This document shows, in pieces, positions 938 to 51,228 of a DNA stretch of 64,000 nucleotides (position 1 is its first letter; each line of letters starts with the position of its first letter). Position numbers and translations under genes: made by a program. The notes beneath the pieces are model-generated. The model made no database searches, was not told the DNA's origin, and saw nothing but the letters and a program-made list of their open reading frames with translations. This DNA is from Fidelibacterota bacterium UBA2242 (lineage in GTDB: Bacteria; Fidelibacterota; UBA2242): NCBI GenBank assembly GCA_002347855.1, contig DDYE01000017.1:271685-335684 (forward strand), written 5' to 3'.

Positions 938-1686
938 TTGACGAAAAAAAGGAGAAAGCCCATGATTGAACTTCAGTATTATGCAGCCTATCGTCAAATG
1001 AAAAGATTTTACGATGTGCGCTATAAGATGGTAAGGTATGCCTTAGAGAATAATATAAGCCAGGCCGCCTGGCGCTTTGGGACGACGCGCCCGACTGTTC
1101 GGAAGTGGTTAACCCGCTATTTAGCCGCAGGTGAATCTGCTCTTTTAGATGAGAGTCGGCGTCCGCAGCATAGTCCCCGCAAGATTGCTGATGCTTTAGA
1201 GAAGAGGATTGTGACTTTACGAAGTCCTCAAGAAGGGCCTAATCATTCTAATTTGCGCGTAGCGCTTGTGAAGGGGCCATTATCTCTGAAGGAGGAGTAC
1301 AATTTGCCTTGCCGTGCCGCTACCATCTATCGGGTGCTCAGGCAGGATACATGATTAAAAACGAATTTTATGATATTGAAGATTATCAAAACCTCTGGGA
1401 CTTTTTGAACAAAGCCTTTACCTATAGTGTTTATTGCAACTACCAGCGTAACTTCCGCTACAAAAGAGGACGCATTCCCATTGAGATTATGAAGGAGTAT
1501 GGCTCACCGAAAATTAATCCAGATTTGCTAGGAATATTTCCACCTTTGATCTGTGATTACCCTCTCAATGTGATTACTAAGGGTGGATACCATGTCTTGA
1601 AATCAGACACTCAGGAGGATATTTATGCTTGTATAAAGGACTTAAACGAAGTAAATTTATTTGCTTTAAGTTATTTGTTGTTTATT
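938..1686 (+). mobile_element. IS481-family transposase remnant (HTH N-terminus plus integrase C-terminal tail; catalytic DDE core deleted)
   Basis: ORF 938-1354 (likely ATG 962 with AAGGAG RBS) encodes ...ISQAAWRFGTTRPTVRKWLTRYLAAGESALLDESRRPQHSPRKI..., the HTH plus G-LxDrSRRPhxSP motif of IS481-type transposases. The frame switches at the ATGA overlap (1351-1354). Continuation 1351-1686 encodes ...YCNYQRNFRYKRGRIPIEIM..., resembling the YNxxRPHxxLGgxTPxE tail of rve integrase domains. No DDE core lies between them. Confidence 0.5.
962..1686 (+). pseudogene. Disrupted transposase gene (internal deletion/frameshift)
   Basis: The two fragments are in different frames and total about 240 aa, versus more than 350 aa for intact IS481 transposases; no inverted repeats identified. 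Confidence 0.45.
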
Positions 1687-3012
1687 ATGTTTGAGCAATT
1701 ACAGACTGGATTTGAGAAAATAGTTCGCACCTTGCGGGGTGAAGGTAAGATTACAGAAGAAAATATTGCCGATACTCTGCGTCAGGTGCGGCGCATATTG
1801 CTCGAAGCAGATGTCAATTACAAAGTTGTCAAGAAATTCATTCAAGGCATACAGGAAAAAGCAGTTGGTGTTCCGGTGACAAAGAGTTTAACACCGGGAC
1901 AAATGGTCATTAAGATAATCCATGACCAGCTTACTTCTTTGCTTGGTCAGAATCAAGTTCAGTTAAAAGATGCCGCAATTCCACCGATGGTCATAATGCT
2001 CGTCGGATTGCAGGGTACGGGTAAGACCACGACTGCTGCCAAGTTAGGTTATTATTTACGTGCTCATCAGCGGAATCCTCTGTTGGTCCCTCTGGACTTA
2101 AAGCGTCCGGCGGCAGTGGAACAGTTACAGTATCTTGGAAAGCAGCATGATTTGTCAGTATTCGTGGAGGGCAAAGAGGTCGTTGAGCGAGCCAAAGCTG
2201 CTCTGAGTCATGCCCGACAAACGCATCGCGATGTAGTTATTCTGGATACGGCGGGACGTTTGCATCTTGATGAAGAGTTAATGGCTGAATTAGTCACACT
2301 CAAAAATGAGATTAAGCCCCATAATATTATCTTGGTCGTTGATGGTATGACTGGTCAGGATGCGGTCAATACGGCGATAAGCTTCGATCAACGCCTGGAT
2401 TTAGATGGTATGATCTTGACGAAAATGGATAGTGATTCTCGCGGTGGAGCAGCTTTATCTATCGTTAAAGTCACTGGCAAGCCAATTCAATTCATCGGAA
2501 CTGGTGAGAAAATAGCCGATTTAGAAATTTTTCACCCTGACCGGATAGCCAGTCGGATTTTAGGACTTGCGGATATTGTTTCTTTGGTAGAAAAGGTACA
2601 GTCTAATGTATCACTTGAAGAAGCCCAAAAAGTGACCCAAAATTTATATGCGCGCCAGTTTACCTTAAATGATTTTCTAAGTCAGTTACAACAGGTGAAA
2701 AAATTGGGACCACTTGAGAATATATTGGCTAATCTCCCTGGTTTCTCAAGAGCTGGGAGCAGTAAATTGCAGGTTGATAATCGCGAATTGATTAAAGCCG
2801 AAGCCATCATTCAATCTATGACCATTGCCGAACGGAATAATCCGATGATTATAAATGGCAGTAGAAGACGGCGAATTGCGTTAGGAAGTGGGACGACTCC
2901 TGCGGATGTCAATCGGTTATTGAATCAGTACTGGCAAGTTGTCAAAATGTCAAAACAATTGAGAAAGATGAAAATTCCCCGGGATTTTTCCGCACTGGGT
3001 TTAAATAAATAA
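1687..3012 (+). CDS. ffh: Signal recognition particle protein Ffh
   Basis: Begins MFEQLQTGFEKIVRTLRGEGKITEENIADTLRQVRRILLEADVNYKVV (canonical Ffh N-domain). GTPase motifs GLQGTGKTT and DTAGR; M-domain present. The tool ORF extends upstream into the IS remnant, but the true start is the internal ATG. Confidence 0.9.
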   Translation: MFEQLQTGFEKIVRTLRGEGKITEENIADTLRQVRRILLEADVNYKVVKKFIQGIQEKAVGVPVTKSLTPGQMVIKIIHDQLTSLLGQNQVQLKDAAIPPMVIMLVGLQGTGKTTTAAKLGYYLRAHQRNPLLVPLDLKRPAAVEQLQYLGKQHDLSVFVEGKEVVERAKAALSHARQTHRDVVILDTAGRLHLDEELMAELVTLKNEIKPHNIILVVDGMTGQDAVNTAISFDQRLDLDGMILTKMDSDSRGGAALSIVKVTGKPIQFIGTGEKIADLEIFHPDRIASRILGLADIVSLVEKVQSNVSLEEAQKVTQNLYARQFTLNDFLSQLQQVKKLGPLENILANLPGFSRAGSSKLQVDNRELIKAEAIIQSMTIAERNNPMIINGSRRRRIALGSGTTPADVNRLLNQYWQVVKMSKQLRKMKIPRDFSALGLNK

Positions 3013-6227: not shown

Positions 6228-6482
6228 AATTTCTTTAAGTAAGTTACGAAAGAAGTGGCGATGAAAAAAAGGTTGATAACGTTATGTTCACAGGAAAGGA
6301 ATTAATGGTTGCGGTTATATTAAAAATGCTTCTGCCTTTATGGCGCAAGGTAAAAGTGGCACATCATTTGTAAAACTAAAGGCGCTTTTTTGACAAGTTG
6401 TCCCGCCCAGGTGGGATTAGAAACAAAGTTAGGTTTGAATCGGGCAGTGAAAATAAAACATAAACAATGAAAGGAGAATTGT

Positions 6483-9017: not shown

Positions 9018-9884
9018 ATGTTAGAAGAAGGGCCATCAAAAAAAAATCTTCCCTTCTCTGCCAGTGGTATTTTAAAACGCTACCTTGAAGAAATTAGTCG
9101 CGAACAGCTGCTGACACCAGCTGAGGAAATCGAATTAGCCATTAGAGTAAAAAATGGTGATCCAGAAGCACTGGATAAATTTTTAAGAGCGAATCTCCGC
9201 TTCGTTGTTTCCGTAGCAAAAAAATATCAGAATCACGGGCTTTCTCTGGAAGACCTAATTAACGAAGGAAATATTGGATTAATTAAAGCTGCTAAACGCT
9301 ACGATGAAACGCGTGGTTTTAAATTTATTTCGTACGCCGTCTGGTGGATCAGGCAAACCATTTTGCAGGCTATTTCTGAATATGCTCGCCTCGTTCGCTT
9401 ACCGTTAAATGTGGTTGGTAATATCAACAAAATTTCAAAAGCAAAAGCTAATTTTGAGCGCGATTTTGAACGCGAGCCAACCGAAGAAGAAATTGAAGAA
9501 ATACTGTGGAATGAAAATATTGACCTGGATTTGACGCGGCAGCTTAGTGAAAAACCACTCAGTATTGATTCTCCTCTTACTCAGGACAATAGCTGCACTT
9601 TACAAGACGTTATTCCGGGGCAAGAGGAATTTGATCCAGTTTTTCATATCAACGAAGAATCGTTTCAACTGGAAATTCAGCAAGCGTTGAATACTTTAGA
9701 GAAAAGGGAAGCCGAAGTTTTACGGCGTTATTTTGGTATCGGACAAGAATCACCTGAGTCACTTGAGCAAATCGGTGCTGCTCTCAATTTGACTCGTGAA
9801 CGTGTACGGCAGATAAAAGAAAAAGCCTTGCGCAAACTGCGACATAGTTCTCGTACATTTTATTTACGAGGTTATCTTGGATAA
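9018..9884 (+). CDS. rpoD: RNA polymerase sigma-70 family factor (short primary-like, RpoD/SigA-type, lacks region 1.1)
   Basis: Region 2 DLINEGNIGLIKAAKRYDETRGFKFISYAVWWIRQTI and region 4 LEQIGAALNLTRERVRQIKEKALRKLR. 288 aa, like the short housekeeping sigma of FCB-group bacteria. Confidence 0.75.
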   Translation: MLEEGPSKKNLPFSASGILKRYLEEISREQLLTPAEEIELAIRVKNGDPEALDKFLRANLRFVVSVAKKYQNHGLSLEDLINEGNIGLIKAAKRYDETRGFKFISYAVWWIRQTILQAISEYARLVRLPLNVVGNINKISKAKANFERDFEREPTEEEIEEILWNENIDLDLTRQLSEKPLSIDSPLTQDNSCTLQDVIPGQEEFDPVFHINEESFQLEIQQALNTLEKREAEVLRRYFGIGQESPESLEQIGAALNLTRERVRQIKEKALRKLRHSSRTFYLRGYLG

Positions 9885-14568: not shown

Positions 14569-14660
14569 GGGAATGAATGCAACCCCGGTGGGTGCCGCGG
14601 TCTTCAAAATCGTCGTCCCGCCAATAGGCGGGAGCTGGGTTCGACTCCCAGGCGTTCCCG
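14569..14660 (+). tRNA. selC: tRNA-Sec (anticodon UCA, selC-like), CCA not encoded
   Basis: Hand-folded. Acceptor GGGAATGA/GCGTTCCC (7 bp plus one mismatch at the 8th pair). Anticodon loop cTTCAaa gives UCA, identical to E. coli selC. Long variable arm tcccgcc-aata-ggcggga (7 bp). T-arm ctggg-ttcgact-cccag. Confidence 0.7.
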
Positions 14661-14789
14661 CAAAAATCTTGCGCTCCTTTAGCTGATTAGCGATTTGGCG
14701 GGGGAAATAGTTCAGGTTGATATCCAATCATTAAATTGGTTATTGGAAATTTGAGATAATATTGCTAAAATTTCCACGTTATTTGATTA

Positions 14790-14882
14790 AATGAGGTCCA
14801 GGGGTGCTATCCCGGCAAATTGGGACGGCTGAGAAATTACCCTTTGAACCTGATCTGGATAATACCAGCGAAGGGAGGTCGT
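14790..14882 (+). promoter_or_regulatory. TPP (thiamine pyrophosphate) riboswitch, THI element
   Basis: ccaGGGGUGCuaucccggcaaauugggacgGCUGAGAaauuACCCuuugaACCUGAUCUGGAUAAUaCCAGCGaAGGGAgg matches the conserved THI-box cores (GGGGUGC, CUGAGA, ACCUGAUCUGGAUAAUGCCAGCGUAGGGA). Its 3' end overlaps the GGGAGG SD of the downstream gene. Confidence 0.85.
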
Positions 14883-17399
14883 ATGAAATGCCTTTTTTCT
14901 TTTCTTTTAATCTTTTCAATTCTTTTTTTCAGCAGCAGTGTCAACCTTTGGGGTGCTGTATCCTCTAAGCCAATTGTTATTACCGGTGAAGTAGTTTCAG
15001 CGCATAGTGCTGCTCCAATCGCCAATGTAAATATCTCGGTCGAAGGCACCCGATGGGGTTGTGCCAGTAATAAAGCTGGCATTTTTGTAATCAAGGTAGA
15101 TTCTCTTCCCGTGACCCTGTCATTCAGTCATATTGCTTTCGAGAGAAAAAATGTCAGGGTCACTCGACCTCAGGTCGGCATAATCCAGCTCGTTCCAGCG
15201 GTATTGATGGGCGAAGAAATCTTAGTCTCCGCGACTCAAGCAGTGCCCGGCAAAACACCAGTTGCCTTTACCGATTTGAACCGGATGCAAATTGAACAAC
15301 TTTATTACCATCAGGATGTACCGCTGGTTTTATCCGACCTGCCGGGTGTCTATGCTTATTCTGATGCGGGCAATGGGGTTGGTTATAGCTATCTCAAAAT
15401 CAGAGGCTTTCAGCAGAGTCAGTTAGGAGTGCTGCTTAATGGCATTCCTTTAAATGACCCTGAAGAGCACGCCGTCTATTGGGTTGACCATGGTGACATC
15501 CTTGCCTCGAGCAGCAGTATTCAGGTCCAGCGTGGGGTTGGTAACTCTCTCTATGGTACTTCTGTGTTTGGCGGTACTGTTAATGTTGTGACCAATACCA
15601 GCAGCCTACCACGGGGTACAACTTTGAATCTCGGTTATGGCAATTACATGGAAAAGGGATTGGATTTGCCATCGCAAAAAATTGCCTTCAGCTATAATGG
15701 TTCCCTACCTAAAAATCTGTCACTGTATCTACGCCTATCCCATCTGACTAGTGCTGGTTATCGTCAGAGTAGCGGTACAGACCAAAATTCATTGCATTTG
15801 AGTCTCGAACAATCGCTAAAAAACAGATTGACTCGCCTGGAAGTTCTGTTAGGAGTAGAAAATACTGGTTTTGCTTGGGAAGGTATTGCTCCAGTATACG
15901 GTTATAATCTTAAAAACCGTCAGCAGCGACGCTATAATTTTTATGCTGACCCTGAATATAATGGTGGTTTAACGAATGCTAATAAGGATGTTTTCCGGCA
16001 GGGACTCTTTTCGCTGCAACATAGTCGGATTATAAATCATGTTTTGTTGAATCTAACTCTCTATGCGGTTCAGGGTAATGGTTATTATGAACAATTCAAG
16101 GGTAAGCGTGATGTTGAGGAATACAATTTAGTCAGCCTATTCCCAGATGTAGTACATAAAGTTGATTTAATCCGACAAAAGTGGCTGCAAAACGGCTACT
16201 GGGGTACGCTTTATCAAATTACCCTTCCGCTTAAAAGTTGCCAATTGACCCTGGGCGGTGATATGCGCATTTATGAAGCAGCTCACTTTGGACGAGTTAA
16301 AAAAGTCCTCAAAGAGTACTTGCCCAATGATAGTACGATTTCGCAATCAACCTTTCCGCCTGCTAACCATAAGTATTATCAAACTGACCGAGAAAAAAAA
16401 TCAATTTCCTTTTATGTTCACAGCTATTTTGATTTAACGCCACGCTTAGGTCTGATGTTTGATGGGCGTTATTTGGGGCATCGCTATTCCTATATCCAGC
16501 GCCGCCTTGGTGTTTATACTCAGGGATACCGCTTTAAACTCAAGTACGATTTCTGGGATCCGCATATCGGCGTCAATTATCGCCTGACTGATTATTGTTC
16601 CATTTTTAGCAATATCTCCACTGCTCACCGTGAACCAACAGACGATGATATTTATAAACAAGATAGTCCGGAGGATGTGCCCAAATTGACTCATTTAGAG
16701 CGAGAGTATGCTGAGCCGCTGGTCAAACCCGAATATTTAATTGACTACGAAGCGGGACTTAAGTTTGATTTACCTGCTACTAAACTGCAAATTAATCTCT
16801 ATCGCATGGATTTTCGTGATGAATTAATCCCGGTGGAATATCGTTACTATGATGCCGACCAGGTATTTCATGCCAATATTGACCGCACAGTTCATCAGGG
16901 AGTTGAGTTGAGCTTTACTCAGCGCTGGCGATGGTTATTGTGGGATGCTAATTTGTCTTATGCTGACAACCATTTTGTGAATTTTCAGGCGGATTCCATT
17001 GGCTGGAGTGGTTGGGGACCAATTGCGGATTATAGTGGAAAAGTCATTCCCGCCTATCCCACCTGGCAAGCCAAGAGTCGCCTTAGTTTGAAATTGGCTG
17101 ATAATGAACTCTGGTTGCAGACAATCTATACTGGCAAGCAGTATATTGACTTTGCGAATACTTCCGCTGCAGCCATCAAGCCCGTTACGTTAGTGAATGT
17201 CGGGTTGAATTATCACCTACCCTTGAAGAAGTATTTCAAGGCAACACTTGCTTTCAGGATTAACAATCTATTCGACAAACTTTACGAGACTTTTGGCTAT
17301 AACTACTATGAAGACTGGGATGATCATTTACAACGCATAGACCTCTATTGGCCAGCTGCTACTCGTAACTATTATCTATCTCTGGTCGTGAATTTTTAA
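14883..17399 (+). CDS. TonB-dependent outer-membrane receptor (predicted thiamine/thiamine-precursor transporter)
   Basis: Start ATG just after the riboswitch-embedded SD. Signal peptide MKCLFSFLLIFSILFFSSSVNLWGA. Plug region plus a long beta-barrel ending in an aromatic C-terminus (...YLSLVVNF), typical TBDT terminus. The tool ORF begins upstream at 14820. Confidence 0.8.
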   Translation: MKCLFSFLLIFSILFFSSSVNLWGAVSSKPIVITGEVVSAHSAAPIANVNISVEGTRWGCASNKAGIFVIKVDSLPVTLSFSHIAFERKNVRVTRPQVGIIQLVPAVLMGEEILVSATQAVPGKTPVAFTDLNRMQIEQLYYHQDVPLVLSDLPGVYAYSDAGNGVGYSYLKIRGFQQSQLGVLLNGIPLNDPEEHAVYWVDHGDILASSSSIQVQRGVGNSLYGTSVFGGTVNVVTNTSSLPRGTTLNLGYGNYMEKGLDLPSQKIAFSYNGSLPKNLSLYLRLSHLTSAGYRQSSGTDQNSLHLSLEQSLKNRLTRLEVLLGVENTGFAWEGIAPVYGYNLKNRQQRRYNFYADPEYNGGLTNANKDVFRQGLFSLQHSRIINHVLLNLTLYAVQGNGYYEQFKGKRDVEEYNLVSLFPDVVHKVDLIRQKWLQNGYWGTLYQITLPLKSCQLTLGGDMRIYEAAHFGRVKKVLKEYLPNDSTISQSTFPPANHKYYQTDREKKSISFYVHSYFDLTPRLGLMFDGRYLGHRYSYIQRRLGVYTQGYRFKLKYDFWDPHIGVNYRLTDYCSIFSNISTAHREPTDDDIYKQDSPEDVPKLTHLEREYAEPLVKPEYLIDYEAGLKFDLPATKLQINLYRMDFRDELIPVEYRYYDADQVFHANIDRTVHQGVELSFTQRWRWLLWDANLSYADNHFVNFQADSIGWSGWGPIADYSGKVIPAYPTWQAKSRLSLKLADNELWLQTIYTGKQYIDFANTSAAAIKPVTLVNVGLNYHLPLKKYFKATLAFRINNLFDKLYETFGYNYYEDWDDHLQRIDLYWPAATRNYYLSLVVNF

Positions 17400-17426
17400 T
17401 GTTCCAGCCATAAAGGCTGGAACATT
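17398..17426 (+). terminator. Perfect 12-bp stem-loop overlapping the receptor stop codon (possible terminator/attenuator; no U-tract)
   Basis: aatgttccagcc-ataaa-ggctggaacatt, preceded by a T-run and followed by taaagc. Confidence 0.35.
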
Positions 17427-17469
17427 AAAGCGAGTACGAAAAGGTATACTTTTCGTTAGGGGAAATTGT

Positions 17470-17498
17470 TTGTCAAATTGCTGCAATATGCGTAAAAT
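17470..17498 (+). promoter_or_regulatory. Candidate promoter TTGTCA-17-TAAAAT upstream of polA
   Basis: ttgtca aattgctgcaatatgcg taaaat, same architecture as the 9893 site. Confidence 0.3.
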
Positions 17499-17513: not shown

Positions 17514-20198
17514 ATGGTTCAAAAATCTACATTATACTTAATTGATGGTTCGGCAATTGCTTACCGTTCCTATTTTGGGACGATTCGCAATCGTCTTACG
17601 ACTTCGCGTGGTGAACCAACGGGCGCTGTCTATGCTTTCGTGAACTCACTCCTTAAGATACTAAACGAATCACGACCGAATTATATTGGTATTGCCTTTG
17701 ATGCTCCTGAAAAGACCTTTCGCCATCAGGTTTATGAGGATTACAAGGCGACCCGCGAAGCGATGCCAGAGGACCTCATTAAGCAATTGCCGTATATGTT
17801 CGAGTTTATCAAAGCCCTGAATATTCCAACGATTATTATGCCCGGTTTCGAAGCTGACGATATCATTGGAACGATGGCTTATCGGGCACGTCAACATAAC
17901 CTCCTGGTCTATATTGTCACTGGCGACAAGGATTTTATGCAGTTATTAACGGATGATATTCTTATCCTTAAACCAGCAATTGCCGGAAAAGAGGTAGAGA
18001 TAATTGACGCCGAGGGTGTACTTACTAAGTGGGGTGTTAAGCCGCACCAGATTCCTGACTATCTGGGATTAATTGGTGATTCCTCTGACAACATACCAGG
18101 AGTGAAAGGTATCGGACCAGCCAAGGCACAGCCACTTTTACAGGAATTTGGCAACCTGGAAGGTGTGCTCAACAATCTTGACCGTATTGGCAATCCACGC
18201 ATTCGCGATTTGATTCGTGATGGTGCTCATCTGGCACGTTTATCGAAAGAACTAGCGACTATTAAAACCGATGTGCCCATTAATATTGATTTTGAAATGC
18301 TGAAAGTCCAGAATCCCGATGAAGAGGCTTTGCAAAACCTTTATAAACGTCTCGAATTCCATTCCTTGTTAAAACAAACTGAATCAATCGCACCGTCGCC
18401 ACGACCAATAAAAAATTACCGCACCGTTCAAAGCTTGTCTGAGATTAGACAACTCATCGCAGAAATCAAACATGGTGATGTCTTTGCTCTTGACTTGGAA
18501 ACGACCTCCATCAGTCCTATGATAGCAGAAATCGTGGGAGTGGCGCTCAGTTGGAAGCCTCATCAAGGTATCTATTTGCCTCTGCGGATGCCCGGCGGGT
18601 TATTTGGCAATGAAGAACATCTCCAGTTATTGAAAGAGTTAAAACCAATTCTCGAAGATGAAAAATTGACGAAATGCGGCCAAAATCTGAAATACGATTT
18701 ACTCATTCTCAAGCGCTACGGGTATCAGGTTAGAGGGAAAATTTTTGATACTATGATTGCGGCTTATTTAATTCAGCCCGATGCCCATAGCTACAAACTC
18801 GATAAACTTGCCCAGCAATACCTGAACTATCAGATGCAACCCATTGAAGAGTTAATTGGTAAGGGCAAAGACCAGTTGACTATGGATCAGGTGTCTGTGG
18901 AAAAAGTCACCTTTTACGCGGCAGAGGATGCTGATGTAGCTCTACAACTCCAGCCAATCTTGACTCAGAAAATGCACTCAGATCAAACCTGGGATGTTTT
19001 TCAAAATATTGAGATGCCGCTGGTGCCAGTCTTGATGACTATGGAACAGAATGGGGTTTTCCTGAATATCGAACTTTTAAAGCAAATGTCCTGCGGTCTC
19101 GATGAGCAAATTGAGCAACTCAGTCAGCAAATCTACGACCTGGCAGGTTGTCAGTTTAATATCAATTCACCTAAACAACTTGGAGAGATTCTCTTTGATA
19201 AATTAAAATTGCCTAAAATCAAAGGCTACTCCACTGATGTGACGGTTCTGGAAAAGATAAAACATCGGCATCCACTACCGGAAGCCATCCTTGAATACCG
19301 CGGCTTGGTCAAGCTGCAAAATACTTACCTTGAGACTCTGCCGCAGTTAGTCAATCCCAAGACGGGGCGTGTGCATAGTTCTTTTAATCAGACCGGTACC
19401 GCTACTGGACGATTGAGCAGTAGCGACCCCAATTTTCAAAATATTCCTATCCGTACAGAAATTGGTCGTGAAATTCGTAAGGCTTTTGTCCCGCAACGAA
19501 CTGATTGGCTCATTTTGTCGGCTGATTATTCGCAAATTGAACTAAGAATTATGGCGCATTTATCTAAGGATCCGGAGTTGCTCCGGGCGTTTAGTGAAAA
19601 TGTTGATATCCATACCCGCACTGCTGCACGTGTTTTCGGTGTCGCTGAAGAAGATGTACTGCCGGAAATGCGCCGGGTAGCCAAAGTGGTAAATTTTGGG
19701 ATAATGTACGGCGCAGGACCATTCAGGATGTCTGAAGAATTAAACATTCCGCGGGCAGAAGCTACTAAACTAATTAAACAATACTTTAATACTTACCCAG
19801 GGATAAATGCTTATATCATGAAAACTCTGGAAGAAGCGCGAGAGAAAGGCTACGTCAAAACCTTAGCGGGACGTCTGCGCTATGTCCCGGATATTAATAG
19901 CGAGAATCGTAATATCAGGGAAGCCGCGGAGAGAATTGCGATTAATATGCCCATTCAGGGTACTGCCGCCGATATGATAAAACTGGCAATGATCAAAATT
20001 CAAGCGCAAATGGAAGAGCATAAACTCCGGGCAATGATGATTTTGCAAATTCACGACGAGTTGCTTTTTGAAGTGCCATCTGATGAACTGGATATTTTAA
20101 AGACCATCGTCGTCAGAGAAATGGAATGGGCACTGCCTCTGGATGTGCCCATTCATGTTGAAGTTGGTGTAGGAAAATCTTGGTACGAGGCGCATTAG
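17514..20198 (+). CDS. polA: DNA polymerase I (5'-3' exonuclease, 3'-5' exo-like and polymerase domains)
   Basis: N-terminal LYLIDGSAIAYRSYF (5' nuclease); C-terminal RRVAKVVNFGIMYG, QIHDELLFEV and DYSQIELRI Pol A motifs. 894 aa. Confidence 0.95.
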   Translation: MVQKSTLYLIDGSAIAYRSYFGTIRNRLTTSRGEPTGAVYAFVNSLLKILNESRPNYIGIAFDAPEKTFRHQVYEDYKATREAMPEDLIKQLPYMFEFIKALNIPTIIMPGFEADDIIGTMAYRARQHNLLVYIVTGDKDFMQLLTDDILILKPAIAGKEVEIIDAEGVLTKWGVKPHQIPDYLGLIGDSSDNIPGVKGIGPAKAQPLLQEFGNLEGVLNNLDRIGNPRIRDLIRDGAHLARLSKELATIKTDVPINIDFEMLKVQNPDEEALQNLYKRLEFHSLLKQTESIAPSPRPIKNYRTVQSLSEIRQLIAEIKHGDVFALDLETTSISPMIAEIVGVALSWKPHQGIYLPLRMPGGLFGNEEHLQLLKELKPILEDEKLTKCGQNLKYDLLILKRYGYQVRGKIFDTMIAAYLIQPDAHSYKLDKLAQQYLNYQMQPIEELIGKGKDQLTMDQVSVEKVTFYAAEDADVALQLQPILTQKMHSDQTWDVFQNIEMPLVPVLMTMEQNGVFLNIELLKQMSCGLDEQIEQLSQQIYDLAGCQFNINSPKQLGEILFDKLKLPKIKGYSTDVTVLEKIKHRHPLPEAILEYRGLVKLQNTYLETLPQLVNPKTGRVHSSFNQTGTATGRLSSSDPNFQNIPIRTEIGREIRKAFVPQRTDWLILSADYSQIELRIMAHLSKDPELLRAFSENVDIHTRTAARVFGVAEEDVLPEMRRVAKVVNFGIMYGAGPFRMSEELNIPRAEATKLIKQYFNTYPGINAYIMKTLEEAREKGYVKTLAGRLRYVPDINSENRNIREAAERIAINMPIQGTAADMIKLAMIKIQAQMEEHKLRAMMILQIHDELLFEVPSDELDILKTIVVREMEWALPLDVPIHVEVGVGKSWYEAH

Positions 20199-28353: not shown

Positions 28354-29367
28354 ATGTATATCCTTGGCATTGAAACCTCTTGCGATGAAACCAGTGTCGC
28401 AATTCTCCAGGATAATGAGGTCTTGACAAATCTCGTTGCTACCCAGTATTTTCATCAAAAATTCGGCGGGGTTGTGCCGGAATATGCTTCCCGGGAGCAT
28501 TTGCGCATCATTTCCGGGATGGTTGAACAAGCCCTTGTTGAAACTCATCTGAATATCCAGCTGATTGATGCCATAGCAGTAACTTACGGACCGGGATTGA
28601 TGGGAGCATTATTAGTCGGTCTTCATTTTGCCAAAGGATTAGCCTTTGCAACGGGGAAGCCACTCCTTGCCGTGAATCATGTTGAGGGGCATATAGTAGC
28701 AAATTTCCTCGAAATGCAGGGATTGCAATATCCGTTTTTGTGCCTTTTAGTCTCGGGTGGGCATACTCAGATTATCAATGTCCTCGATTTCGGGCATTAT
28801 AAGATTTATGGACGTAGTATAGACGATGCTGCCGGAGAAGCCTTTGACAAAGCTGCTCGAATTCTGGGATTATCTTTTCCCGGTGGTCCTCAGATTGATA
28901 AATTAGCTCAAAATGGTAATCCATCTTTCTATTATTTCCCCCGTGCACATGTAAGAAGTGATAGCGCGGATTTCAGTTTTAGTGGCTTGAAAACTGCCTT
29001 GCTTTATCTCGTCCGTAAACATGATACCAATTGGGTGCAAGAACATCTAACAGATTTGTGCGCATCATACCAGGAATCAATCGTCGATGTCCTCAAAACG
29101 AATACTTTTTCTGTCGCTGAGAAAATCCACGCGCGCCGATTAGTTCTGGCTGGTGGTGTGGCAGCCAATTCTCGTCTGCGAACTGTATTTCGTCAGACTG
29201 CAATGGCTTACGGTATTCAATTATTCTTTCCACCACTCAAATATTGCACCGATAATGCCGCCATGATCGCTAGAACAGGTTACGAAATGTTCCAACGCCA
29301 GATGTTTGCGCCACTTGCAGTGACCGCCGTCCCAAATCTGCGTATTCCAGAAAAAACTGATGACTAA
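28354..29367 (+). CDS. tsaD: tRNA N6-adenosine threonylcarbamoyltransferase TsaD
   Basis: MYILGIETSCDETSVAI...GGVAANSRLR, canonical Kae1/TsaD motifs. Confidence 0.9.
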   Translation: MYILGIETSCDETSVAILQDNEVLTNLVATQYFHQKFGGVVPEYASREHLRIISGMVEQALVETHLNIQLIDAIAVTYGPGLMGALLVGLHFAKGLAFATGKPLLAVNHVEGHIVANFLEMQGLQYPFLCLLVSGGHTQIINVLDFGHYKIYGRSIDDAAGEAFDKAARILGLSFPGGPQIDKLAQNGNPSFYYFPRAHVRSDSADFSFSGLKTALLYLVRKHDTNWVQEHLTDLCASYQESIVDVLKTNTFSVAEKIHARRLVLAGGVAANSRLRTVFRQTAMAYGIQLFFPPLKYCTDNAAMIARTGYEMFQRQMFAPLAVTAVPNLRIPEKTDD

Positions 29368-31483
29368 TTTATTTGTCCAATTTCACGGTTTTAGCATTTA
29401 TTATTTTGTTGCCTTTTTGATTGCTTTGGGGCTTTATCTCTATCTCTCTTTGAAGAACAAAAACAGTACTCCTCGAGCCATCGAACGCTGGCTGCTGATT
29501 CTGCGGACGATAACACTGACGCTGCTATTTTTTATAGCGCTGCAACCCGAAGTGCACTGGCAGAAGCAGCATAAAATTCCGCCCAAAGTCATTCTATCTC
29601 TCGATAACTCACTCAGCATCGCAGCCCAAAAGGGATTTCAGCGTGATAGCTTATTACACAATTTGGAAGTGCTCGAAGAACATCTTGCCAAAAGAAAAAT
29701 ACGAGTGGCAAAATTGGCTTTTGACGCTGAGATAAACGAAAATATCGATGATTTTAGTCGGCTGCATTTTGATGGAGTGGCGACCAATCTTTCTGCCGTC
29801 TTAAAAAGGTTTCAAGAATCGACGGATGAAGATAATTATTTAGGAGCAATTTTAATCACGGATGGCATTGCAACCCGCGGCGAAGATCCTTTGTCTTTGA
29901 ACTTCCATCCGCGCTTTCCGGTTTTTACGGTCGGTGTTGGTGACAGTACGCCTCTATTCGACCCGCGGGTAACGAATTTAGAAATGCCACTTGTAGCAAC
30001 GACTTCTGATACCGTAAAAATAATGACCGAGATAATCCCTCTGGGTAGTGGTGAACTCCTCGATGTAGTGCTGCAGTTAGACAACAAAGTCAGCCAACGG
30101 CACTCCATTGCTACTCAGAATCGAGATTTTCGTCAGGCGGATGAATTCTGCCTGGTTATCAATAAACCGGGCATCCATAAAATCAAAGTTGCCATCCAGC
30201 CCAGGAATGACATAAATCCGTATAATAACTGGTCAGAGAGCACGATTCGAATCAATACCGATAAAATCAATATCGTATTAATTGATGGCAGTGGTTCTTT
30301 CGAGGGTAAATTTCTAAAAACTACACTTGGGCGAATGCCTGTAGTGAACGTTATTAACTTAATTCAAACTCAGAAAAATTATATTCCGATACCTTTATCG
30401 GCAGTCCTACCGCGTAAATGGCAGGGCTTGGTCTTAATTGGTTATCCCACTACTAATACTGAGGTCGGTGATTTGACTAAGCTCAAGCGCAAAATTGCTG
30501 CGGAAAAAATTCCGCTCTGGTTTATCATCAATGAGCAAACCGATTTGAACAAGCTAGCAATACTGAGTGGTGAACCGATTTTGCAGGAGATTGTGATAAA
30601 TAAAAGTTCCGAGTCAGTGAATGTCAATTTCAATGAAAGCAATCGGTCACATTCACTCCTTCAAAATATCGGCCTGTATTTTGGTTCTACGCGGGACCTG
30701 GCGAACTTACCGCCATTGGGCATGCCATTTAAAAAGGTAAAACTTGACCCTGACTGGCAGGTTCTTATAAGAGCGGCACCGCCTTACGACTCGCCCATAA
30801 TCGCTTGTCGAGAAACTGGTTTGGTGCGGCAGTCTCTTTATTTAGGCAATGATTTCTGGCGCTGGCAATTCATGAGCGGGGAAGAGAGTGGCTTTTATGA
30901 TGAGTTAGTTAGAAGTACTTTAAGCTGGCTCAGCGATACTTTAAGCCAATCGAATGTACTCCTTTCTATGAATCGGGAAGTATTTTTAAAAGGTGAGGTC
31001 TTAGAAATCGGTGCGCAGGTGTTCGATTTGAAAGGCAAATCTCTTTCCCATGCTTCTGTCGTCGCTAAAATAATCGATGCTAAGGAAGATGCGGTGCTAA
31101 TTCCACTGCAATGGGATGGCTCCCGCTACCTCGGCGAATATCTCTGCGCAGCGGATGGTGAATTTAAACTGCAGCTGAACGCGACGGTTGGTAGTTTCAC
31201 TTATAAGCAGCCGGAACGAATTTTCAAGGTGACTGACCAACCTATTGAACTAATGCAATTGAGGCAAAATGCAGGAGTACTGCACTCGCTTGCCCAGCGT
31301 TCCGGTGGTGAATTAATTAATCCAGTTGGTATGATGAATCTTGCGGATCGCTTTACTTATAAGGAGAAAATCATCACCGTCCAACAAACCCTTAAGTTGT
31401 GGCGTTCAGGAGGAATGTTAATTCTGCTGATGATTTTACTGGTTGGTGAGTGGGTATTAAGACGGCGCTTTGGCTTTCAATAA
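29360..31483 (+). CDS. Membrane protein with N-terminal double-TM anchor, von Willebrand A domain and C-terminal TM (BatA-like)
   Basis: MIDAS DxSxS in VILSLDNSLSI...ITDGIATRGEDP; second IVLIDGSGSFEG segment. Hydrophobic N- and C-termini. 8-nt overlap with tsaD. Confidence 0.5.
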   Translation: MTNLFVQFHGFSIYYFVAFLIALGLYLYLSLKNKNSTPRAIERWLLILRTITLTLLFFIALQPEVHWQKQHKIPPKVILSLDNSLSIAAQKGFQRDSLLHNLEVLEEHLAKRKIRVAKLAFDAEINENIDDFSRLHFDGVATNLSAVLKRFQESTDEDNYLGAILITDGIATRGEDPLSLNFHPRFPVFTVGVGDSTPLFDPRVTNLEMPLVATTSDTVKIMTEIIPLGSGELLDVVLQLDNKVSQRHSIATQNRDFRQADEFCLVINKPGIHKIKVAIQPRNDINPYNNWSESTIRINTDKINIVLIDGSGSFEGKFLKTTLGRMPVVNVINLIQTQKNYIPIPLSAVLPRKWQGLVLIGYPTTNTEVGDLTKLKRKIAAEKIPLWFIINEQTDLNKLAILSGEPILQEIVINKSSESVNVNFNESNRSHSLLQNIGLYFGSTRDLANLPPLGMPFKKVKLDPDWQVLIRAAPPYDSPIIACRETGLVRQSLYLGNDFWRWQFMSGEESGFYDELVRSTLSWLSDTLSQSNVLLSMNREVFLKGEVLEIGAQVFDLKGKSLSHASVVAKIIDAKEDAVLIPLQWDGSRYLGEYLCAADGEFKLQLNATVGSFTYKQPERIFKVTDQPIELMQLRQNAGVLHSLAQRSGGELINPVGMMNLADRFTYKEKIITVQQTLKLWRSGGMLILLMILLVGEWVLRRRFGFQ

Positions 31484-50229: not shown

Positions 50230-51228
50230 ATGGGTTTCAAATTCCCCAAAATAATTGTATTAATAAGTCTTGTCGGACTTTCTGATTGCAATTTTAATCT
50301 ACCAACTAATCATAGTAACGGCAATTTTGACCTCCAGACTCTACCTCAGGAAATGCTTTTATATATCCCAACTTATGATGGTTCTAATCAAGCTACTCAT
50401 CCCGATGTCCTTTTTTTCCCAGAAGGGAGGAACGGTATTTACTTTTATTTAGTCATGACACCTTACCCCTGGAGCAATAACCGCTATGAGAATCCAAGCC
50501 TGTTATTCAGTCGCAATGGAGTGAATTTTTACGAACCAGTAACAGGTCTAAACCCTTTGGTGCCCCAGCCAACTTATGACCATAACAATGATCCCGACCT
50601 TATTTTCAATCCGCTTACCGAGGCATTCAATATTTTTTATCTCGAAACAATGCGTCCCGATTCGCAAAACACGGTTCTATTAACCAGTCCCGATGGTATT
50701 AAATGGAGAAAAAAAACCGCTGTCCATTATGATTTGAAAGCTGGTGACCCTTTTATTTTGTCCCCTGCTGTAATATTTGTCGATAGTTGTTTCTATATGT
50801 TTTATGTAAAAGCCCAGAGCACAACTCAAACTGAAATCAATTATATTACCAGCCCTGACGGTGAAAAATGGGAAAAAGATAGTGTTAATAGGGTATCGAC
50901 CAATTTTTCCGCCCAATTTGCACCCTGGCATCTGGATGTTTTTCGGGATGAAAATTATTTCTATATGTTATGTTGTGGACCCTATAAAGATTTGAATCTC
51001 TATTTAGGACAGTCAACCGATTTACAGAATTGGAAATTTTTAGAAGAGCCAATTATCAGAAGGTCAAAGAATTTTTACGACAGTGAAAGAATATACCGCA
51101 GTTCTGGTATTGTCCAGGATAATCTTTTGGTGGTTTATTTTTCACTCCGTACAAATTTGGGACAATGGAGAATCGGTTTGAAGAAATTTTCTTTGATGGA
51201 ACTTTTTAAAAATGATTTGCACCAATAA
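50230..51228 (+). CDS. Secreted/lipoprotein BNR (Asp-box) repeat beta-propeller protein, putative glycosidase-like
   Basis: Signal peptide MGFKFPKIIVLISLVGLSDC; two Asp-box motifs, TSPDGIKW and TSPDGEKW. Confidence 0.4.
   Translation: MGFKFPKIIVLISLVGLSDCNFNLPTNHSNGNFDLQTLPQEMLLYIPTYDGSNQATHPDVLFFPEGRNGIYFYLVMTPYPWSNNRYENPSLLFSRNGVNFYEPVTGLNPLVPQPTYDHNNDPDLIFNPLTEAFNIFYLETMRPDSQNTVLLTSPDGIKWRKKTAVHYDLKAGDPFILSPAVIFVDSCFYMFYVKAQSTTQTEINYITSPDGEKWEKDSVNRVSTNFSAQFAPWHLDVFRDENYFYMLCCGPYKDLNLYLGQSTDLQNWKFLEEPIIRRSKNFYDSERIYRSSGIVQDNLLVVYFSLRTNLGQWRIGLKKFSLMELFKNDLHQ

Follow-up and report, generated by a model that had tools for sequence, protein, structure and literature searches.

A thiamine pyrophosphate riboswitch with a Shine-Dalgarno sequence inside its aptamer precedes a stand-alone gene for a putative vitamin B1 receptor in a Fidelibacterota bacterium

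Genes for TonB-dependent outer-membrane receptors that stand directly behind a thiamine pyrophosphate (TPP) riboswitch have been described under two names, OMthi and Omr1. In the classic operon of Bacteroidota the riboswitch is followed by OMthi, pnuT and tnr3, whereas in Bacteroides thetaiotaomicron OMthi (BT2390) is split from pnuT-tnr3 (BT2396-97) and keeps a TPP riboswitch of its own (PMC5613172). OMthi of this species is required for growth at low thiamine when thiamine biosynthesis is deleted (PMC5613172). Its riboswitch lies less than 5 nucleotides (nt) from the start codon, and transport riboswitches at such a distance in this species repressed translational fusions while mRNA levels remained unchanged (bioRxiv 10.1101/867226). 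Comparative genomics uses the name Omr1 ('thiamin-regulated outer membrane receptor'); studies of vitamin B1 in the sea employ its gene as a marker, and reports of it come from Flavobacteriales, SAR86, Sphingomonadales, Cellvibrionales, Verrucomicrobia and others (PMC12442306, PMC10881298, PMC12236431). Here we describe a riboswitch and receptor gene of this type, located at positions 14790-17399 of a 64,000-nt stretch of the Fidelibacterota bacterium UBA2242 (assembly GCA_002347855.1, contig DDYE01000017.1, positions 271,685 to 335,684), which we will refer to as the window and whose own numbering is used throughout.

The locus closely resembles that of B. thetaiotaomicron OMthi, in that a TonB-dependent receptor is encoded directly behind a TPP riboswitch, separately from the gene of the inner-membrane transporter, and the aptamer ends a few nucleotides from the start codon, a position for which control at the level of translation is known in B. 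thetaiotaomicron. The likeness in sequence was established through the receptor of a Bacteroidales locus (L018) of the receptor-pnuT-tnr3 type. The two differ in phylum, the window belonging to a Fidelibacterota/Marinimicrobia-like lineage and not to Bacteroidota, and in the strong canonical Shine-Dalgarno sequence (SD) embedded in the window aptamer. Moreover, pnuT-tnr3 was not found within the 64 kb of the window, whereas B. thetaiotaomicron carries it, behind a second riboswitch, only a few genes from OMthi. The concept is likewise that of Omr1, where a TonB-dependent receptor, often encoded alone, is inferred to be a putative B1 transporter from the TPP riboswitch that precedes it. With the classic Bacteroidota operon, exemplified by L018, the window shares the families of riboswitch and receptor, but its receptor gene is monocistronic and followed by a hairpin and polA, and its aptamer-to-start distance is about 0 nt, compared with 50-100 nt in most sampled Bacteroidota loci. 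As in the thiM and thiC riboswitches of Escherichia coli, which repress translation, bound TPP would be expected to conceal the ribosome-binding site at the window locus. These E. coli elements possess a separate expression platform in which an anti-SD sequence pairs with the SD. By contrast, the SD of the receptor gene in the window belongs to the aptamer core, and there is no platform.

The initial annotation of this stretch had recognised the core motifs of a THI-box, and a covariance-model search bears out that they belong to a genuine TPP riboswitch. The Rfam model RF00059, whose gathering score is 54.3, matches positions 14790-14893 (+) over its full length (model positions 1-105) at 66.5 bits and an E-value of 7.2e-11 (cmscan of the 64-kb window). 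A covariance model of our own, R1, built from the aptamers of the receptor family loci described below, scores the window aptamer at 92.6 bits, and with either model it is the single TPP match in the 64 kb. Indeed, the scan of the whole window at Rfam gathering thresholds returned two matches in total, this riboswitch and a selenocysteine tRNA at 14569-14659. We place the aptamer proper at 14790-14882 (+), the Rfam match extending to 14893 and thereby taking in the start codon of the receptor gene. The THI-box core can be read directly from the sequence, with CUGAGA at 14829-14834 and ACCCUUUGAACCUGAUCUGGAUAAUACCAGCGAAGGGA at 14839-14876, so that both the pyrimidine-sensor arm (CUGAGA) and the pyrophosphate-sensor arm (ACCUGAU...GGAUAAUACC...GCG.AGGGA, 14847-14876) are present. 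The ligand-contacting core motifs are invariant in 16 related aptamers, and RNAalifold applied to seven relatives including the window recovers helices P2/P3 and P4/P5 with compensatory changes at six pairs. In helix P1, two of the five pairs are non-canonical in the Rfam alignment of the window aptamer.

The open reading frame (ORF) directly behind the aptamer encodes a TonB-dependent outer-membrane receptor, as the initial annotation had proposed. Read from the ATG at 14883 to 17399 (+), it gives a protein of 838 amino acids (aa) with the N-terminus MKCLFSFLLIFSILFF. Besides a signal peptide, the product carries the Pfam domains CarbopepD_reg_2 (PF13715), Plug (PF07715) and TonB_dep_Rec_b-barrel (PF00593), i.e. 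the architecture of a TonB-dependent transporter (plug and a barrel domain of the 22-strand family) with the N-terminal CarboxypepD_reg-like domain that is also found in Bacteroidota members, and the same three domains occur in the homologs. A longer ORF listed at 14820-17399 would begin at TTG 14820; we rejected this start since it sits inside the aptamer and since ATG 14883 agrees with public gene calls and with the N-termini of homologs. Indeed, a protein identical to the 838-aa product exists in a public collection (P0001), and four public contigs bear gene calls for the same sequence. The nearest homologs are metagenomic proteins of 63-64% identity, followed at 51-52% by proteins labelled Fidelibacterota, Marinimicrobia, Zhuqueibacterota or Calditrichota; together with the gene order shared with a related locus (L005), these labels point to an FCB-group bacterium near Fidelibacterota. 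The receptor can be aligned over its full length with that of the Bacteroidales operon L018 (26% identity, E-value 9e-76). No solved structure was found for the receptor family, the best match in the PDB (E-value 1e-6) being confined to the plug domain. None of the cutoffs of the curated NCBIfam siderophore, heme or B12 receptor subfamilies is reached (95 vs 223.5 bits for TIGR01783, 78 vs 323.75 for TIGR01786, and 67 vs 599.7 for TIGR01779, BtuB).

The association of aptamer and receptor extends far beyond the window. We sampled 20 loci of the receptor family from species-representative genomes and 80 metagenome loci. A TPP aptamer on the same strand lies directly upstream of the receptor gene in 15 of the 20 genome loci at the Rfam gathering score; R1 adds four Flavobacteriales loci, which makes 19 of 19 testable cases, the remaining locus being cut 20 nt upstream of the gene. 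Among the metagenome loci R1 finds the aptamer in 61 of 80, and 15 of the 19 loci without it are contigs beginning at or inside the gene, so that 61 of about 65 testable metagenome loci carry it. In several phyla, a TPP riboswitch thus accompanies this receptor family nearly without exception. In some members the context points further to thiamine: the order in L018 is TPP riboswitch, receptor, PnuT (PF04973) and thiamine pyrophosphokinase (TPK), as identified with Pfam, and in L008 the riboswitch and receptor are followed by TPK. Because of this nearly constant upstream aptamer and the occurrence of some members in receptor-PnuT-TPK operons, the product of the window gene is assigned as a putative vitamin B1 receptor of the Omr1/OMthi type. 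The observation of a TPP aptamer in front of such a receptor gene is confirmed in every particular and lies far beyond chance. A different arrangement was seen in nine GC-rich metagenome loci (L030, L033, L036, L041, L043, L045, L046, L062 and L070), in which about 1.5 kb separates the upstream TPP aptamer from the region homologous to the receptor. In four of them (L043, L046, L062 and L070) the frame is open throughout up to the aptamer, implying an N-terminal extension of about 500 aa, which in L070 is without a Pfam match.

The start codon of the window receptor gene lies inside the RF00059 match, and a GGGAGG SD is located at 14873-14878 (+), 4 nt ahead of the ATG. According to the Rfam and RNAalifold alignments, G14873 and G14874 belong to the 3' strand of P4, G14875 and A14876 to the junction, and the 3' strand of P1 starts with G14877 and G14878; the pairs predicted by RNAalifold are C14849-G14874, C14850-G14873 and U14851-A14872. 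From this placement it follows that the SD is composed of nucleotides of the aptamer core. The same layout is conserved among the closest relatives of the window, a clade of seven Fidelibacterota/Marinimicrobia-like members (the window, L005, L006, L007, L025, L026 and L027) whose receptors share 43-100% identity with that of the window. GGAGG or GGGAGG, followed by 4-8 nt and ATG, is present in 7/7, and in all seven (receptors of at least 43% identity) the start codon lies between -3 and +2 nt relative to the end of the aptamer model. In almost all other sampled lineages this distance amounts to 35-165 nt. Motifs resembling an SD (5-6 nt) precede about 18% of the genes in the window as compared to 1% of random positions; the genome therefore employs SD-dependent initiation, though not at every gene. 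That the 3' strand of the aptamer overlaps the SD had been noted before, together with the implication of translational control. The overlap holds in every one of the seven members, and it is consistent with such control, which would make expression of the receptor dependent on thiamine.

We propose, with a probability of roughly three in four, that the locus represents a stand-alone unit of a TPP riboswitch and an Omr1/OMthi-type receptor, in which TPP represses translation by way of the SD embedded in the aptamer, in which a separate expression platform is lacking, and to which an inner-membrane partner encoded at a distance belongs. Since the start codon already falls within the Rfam match, no stretch is left for an expression platform, and the compact arrangement of SD and aptamer fits repression at the level of translation. 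At high TPP, binding of the ligand would lock P4/P5, the three-way junction and the weak P1; the locked aptamer would bury the SD and crowd the AUG, so that the 30S ribosomal subunit could not load and synthesis of the receptor would drop. At low TPP, the apo aptamer would be loose enough to permit initiation, and the receptor would be made. It would then use energy supplied by TonB to carry scarce thiamine, or a thiamine-related compound, over the outer membrane, and a transporter of the inner membrane, encoded elsewhere in the genome, would complete the uptake. By analogy, direct occlusion of 30S loading by the TPP-stabilised P4/P5, junction and P1 appears the most likely mode of control.

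Several observations weigh against this proposal. An SD is found at a minority of the window genes only. Ligand-free structure predictions give the SD region a mean unpaired probability of 0.09 for the window and of 0.16-0.61 for the relatives, so that a clearly open SD does not emerge, and the minimum-free-energy fold pairs the SD with a U-rich stretch of codons 4-6. P1 is weak and poorly conserved in the clade, its best duplexes being interrupted and ranging from -0.1 to -6.5 kcal/mol; a consensus P1 is absent from the RNAalifold prediction for the seven-sequence clade, and there is no covariation for this helix. With respect to the cargo, the substrate specificity of Omr1/OMthi has been called unclear in the field (PMC12442306), and partners of some relatives, namely sodium:solute symporter family (SSF) proteins resembling ThiV, and ThiE, hint at uptake of a precursor over that of intact thiamine. 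Sequestration of the AUG by a conserved P1 helix was considered and rejected, given only weak, interrupted duplexes without support from covariation. Thermodynamic folding as evidence of an ON/OFF switch was likewise set aside as uninformative in either direction: no clear state with an open SD was obtained, and the z-score of the unconstrained folding (-0.81) is unremarkable.

The nature of the cargo and of the inner-membrane step is best considered together. Neither the window nor the loci of its six closest relatives gave a match at E < 0.1 to PnuT, TPK or a ThiV-like SSF protein in tblastn searches with queries taken from related loci, and a Pfam scan of about 50 window ORFs yielded no thiamine-related family, only housekeeping genes and genes of a polysaccharide cluster. 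Since no homolog of a partner is present in these loci, the inner-membrane step would have to be encoded elsewhere in the genome. A route for thiamine or a thiamine moiety through the outer membrane had been predicted for the locus, and comparative genomics lends support to it, through the TPP aptamer found family-wide and the receptor-PnuT-TPK operons. We regard thiamine as the best guess for the cargo, by analogy with the genetics of B. thetaiotaomicron (PMC5613172) and with the PnuT/TPK contexts of relatives. Alternatively, the same riboswitch and receptor could serve the uptake of a thiamine precursor or degradation product, such as 4-amino-5-hydroxymethyl-2-methylpyrimidine (HMP), N-formyl-4-amino-5-aminomethyl-2-methylpyrimidine or its aminomethyl counterpart (FAMP/AmMP), or the thiazole moiety. 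The receptor gene is followed by a sodium:solute symporter gene in four loci, namely L028 (6554-7978), which is the closest outgroup to the clade of the window, L031, L039 and L052, and by thiE in two; this family of symporters includes the pyrimidine transporter ThiV (PMC10881298, table of B1 genes), and the specificity of omr1 is regarded as unclear in published work (PMC12442306). Nevertheless, the best-characterised member of the family, that of B. thetaiotaomicron, supports growth on thiamine itself (PMC5613172), and in other relatives the receptor is accompanied by PnuT and TPK, i.e. by a salvage route for intact thiamine, while the clade of the window, being devoid of a partner gene, informs neither way. 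We therefore consider a precursor as the cargo unlikely. The symporter of L028, L031, L039 and L052 is a candidate for an inner-membrane partner alternative to PnuT.

As a further alternative, the riboswitch could act mainly at the level of the transcript, through Rho-dependent termination or RNA decay, and not on the initiation of translation. In the TPP and lysC riboswitches of E. coli, repression of translation is linked with termination by Rho or with cleavage by RNase E (summary in 10.1101/867226), and the OMthi mRNA of Bacteroides uniformis shows a response to thiamine of about 3-fold (10.1101/867226). An intrinsic terminator, however, has no space where the AUG lies inside the Rfam match, and a scan revealed no terminator-like site between aptamer and coding sequence. 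In B. thetaiotaomicron, riboswitches equally near to the start codon affected translation alone (10.1101/867226). Rho termination or decay of the mRNA might well accompany repression, yet any such effect would be secondary to the blocked initiation, and control that operates mainly on transcript level seems quite improbable. That the gene encodes a generic receptor of iron complexes or siderophores behind a decaying or coincidental aptamer, as the Joint Genome Institute (JGI) name 'iron complex outermembrane receptor protein' of several homologs and the siderophore-receptor subfamily as best NCBIfam match might suggest, is hardly credible, since this match (95 bits against a cutoff of 223.5) does not amount to membership, the aptamer exceeds the gathering threshold with all core motifs intact, and its conservation upstream of the receptor family across several phyla can be explained neither by chance nor by decay.

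Translational repression by TPP of a receptor encoded alone thus remains our preferred interpretation, and the boundaries of the transcription unit agree with it as far as the second point is concerned. The receptor gene forms a stand-alone (monocistronic) unit, as had been stated for this locus along with the lack of an inner-membrane partner nearby, and its limits are supported by two promoter-like sites and a hairpin. A consensus scan identified TTGGAA and TAAAAT, spaced by 17 nt, at 14743-14771 (+), with 9 of 12 matches and a TG ahead of the -10 element (extended -10); as weak evidence, this site would place the start of the transcript about 10-15 nt before the aptamer, although the consensus used may not be that of this lineage. 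At the other end a strong hairpin of 16 bp, with a perfect core of 12 bp at 17398-17426, overlaps the stop codon of the receptor gene (17394-17430, +). Its folding energy is -28.3 kcal/mol (z = -8.0), and none of 200 shuffled sequences folds as well. Hence the 12-bp stem-loop that the initial annotation had placed ahead of polA exists and is in fact longer; polA follows at 17514-20198. In this hairpin the T run stands on the 5' side and the A run on the 3' side, a T tract is missing downstream, and the terminator scan did not call it, so that a canonical intrinsic terminator is rejected for either strand. It is kept as a probable 3'-end or termination element separating the receptor gene from polA because two relatives with polA downstream possess strong hairpins at the equivalent position, L025 a different one of 16 bp and L005 a canonical GC hairpin with a U tract. 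A second promoter-like site, TTGTCA and TAAAAT with a spacer of 17 nt (10 of 12 matches), lies at 17470-17498 (+) and ends 15 nt ahead of the ATG of polA at 17514. There is no SD before polA, and the proximity of this sigma-70-like promoter match to its start codon suggests a very short or nearly leaderless mRNA.

Gene order in L005 and L025 equals that of the window (receptor, polA, ATP-binding cassette (ABC) ATPase, ABC-2 permease), while in L006, L007 and L027 genes on the opposite strand follow the receptor gene. In L027, about eight tandem copies of GGGAGTAAG follow directly after the receptor stop codon (at about 6395-6450), and a subsequent T/C-rich tract is able to pair with them in a long hairpin. 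Across the family, an ORF on the same strand within 300 nt downstream is present in 43 of about 78 loci having enough downstream sequence, and in many loci the next gene is on the opposite strand. Among these 43 ORFs, five encode PnuT, four a sodium:solute symporter and two ThiE, the rest being unrelated, including SmpB (six times) and polA; in total, a thiamine-related gene stands behind the receptor gene in no more than about 13 of 78 loci (L008 and L018 counted in). A stand-alone receptor gene is therefore not unusual but the commonest arrangement across the family. The initial annotation had implied a novelty by setting the locus apart from operons of the Bacteroidota type; this is not supported, both for this reason and since the OMthi gene of B. 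thetaiotaomicron is already split off with a riboswitch of its own (PMC5613172; 10.1101/867226).

The pairing of riboswitch and receptor is thus already known, experimentally studied and in routine use as a marker, and the stand-alone layout adjacent to the start codon has published precedent. Neither a new mechanism nor a new kind of system is revealed here, and substrate recognition by the receptor is already a recognised question. What is new is modest: the occurrence of members in a Fidelibacterota-like lineage and the clade-wide layout with a strong SD in the aptamer core. The Omr1 studies cited here mention neither Fidelibacterota/Marinimicrobia members nor an SD placed within the aptamer (PMC12442306, PMC10881298, PMC12236431), and the receptor is not mentioned in the main text of the RegPrecise paper (PMC3766115). 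With these findings the Omr1/OMthi class of riboswitch-controlled putative B1 receptors is extended to the Fidelibacterota/Marinimicrobia-like lineage. Members of this lineage are abundant in the oceans and in subsurface habitats and are hard to culture. The locus suggests that such organisms scavenge thiamine or related compounds from outside, which bears on models of B1 cross-feeding. In addition, the clade offers a very compact natural riboswitch, whose aptamer core doubles as ribosome-binding site and which could be a convenient minimal system for the study or engineering of translational control by TPP. One may further speculate, as a tentative and on balance doubtful suggestion, that the aptamer of this clade has lost its expression platform, its universally conserved 3' core (AGG-GA-GG) having been co-opted as an SD so that sensor and ribosome-binding site are one, that this layout is specific to the lineage, and that the thiamine transporter of the inner membrane is neither PnuT nor a ThiV-like SSF protein and possibly of no type yet described.

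Some further features of the window deserve mention. The selenocysteine tRNA, with anticodon TCA, is located at 14569-14661 (+) and was detected by Rfam (58.7 bits) and ARAGORN; it starts 4 nt after the stop codon of a SPOR-domain gene, about 130 nt upstream of the riboswitch. No domains like those of selA, selB or selD were seen among the window ORFs scanned. The gene of a sigma-70 family protein at 9018-9884 (+) codes for only 288 aa, comprising regions 1.2, 2, 3 and 4 without a long N-terminal region. We take it to resemble the short primary sigma factors of Bacteroidota, and scans with a promoter consensus of the E. coli type may not fully apply to this genome. Two ORFs have no Pfam match, one of 707 aa at 29360-31483 (+) (E-value threshold 1e-5 or below) and one of 332 aa at 50230-51228 (+) (1e-6 or below), the latter within a cluster for polysaccharide biosynthesis and export that spans about 31.6-54 kb. 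Finally, a helix-turn-helix ORF of 138 aa at 938-1354 (+) (HTH_32/HTH_28, as in the N-termini of transposases) extends past the start annotated for the ffh (SRP54) ORF at 1309-3012 (+), whose true start is probably located further downstream, because the SRP54 domains begin only at residue 132.

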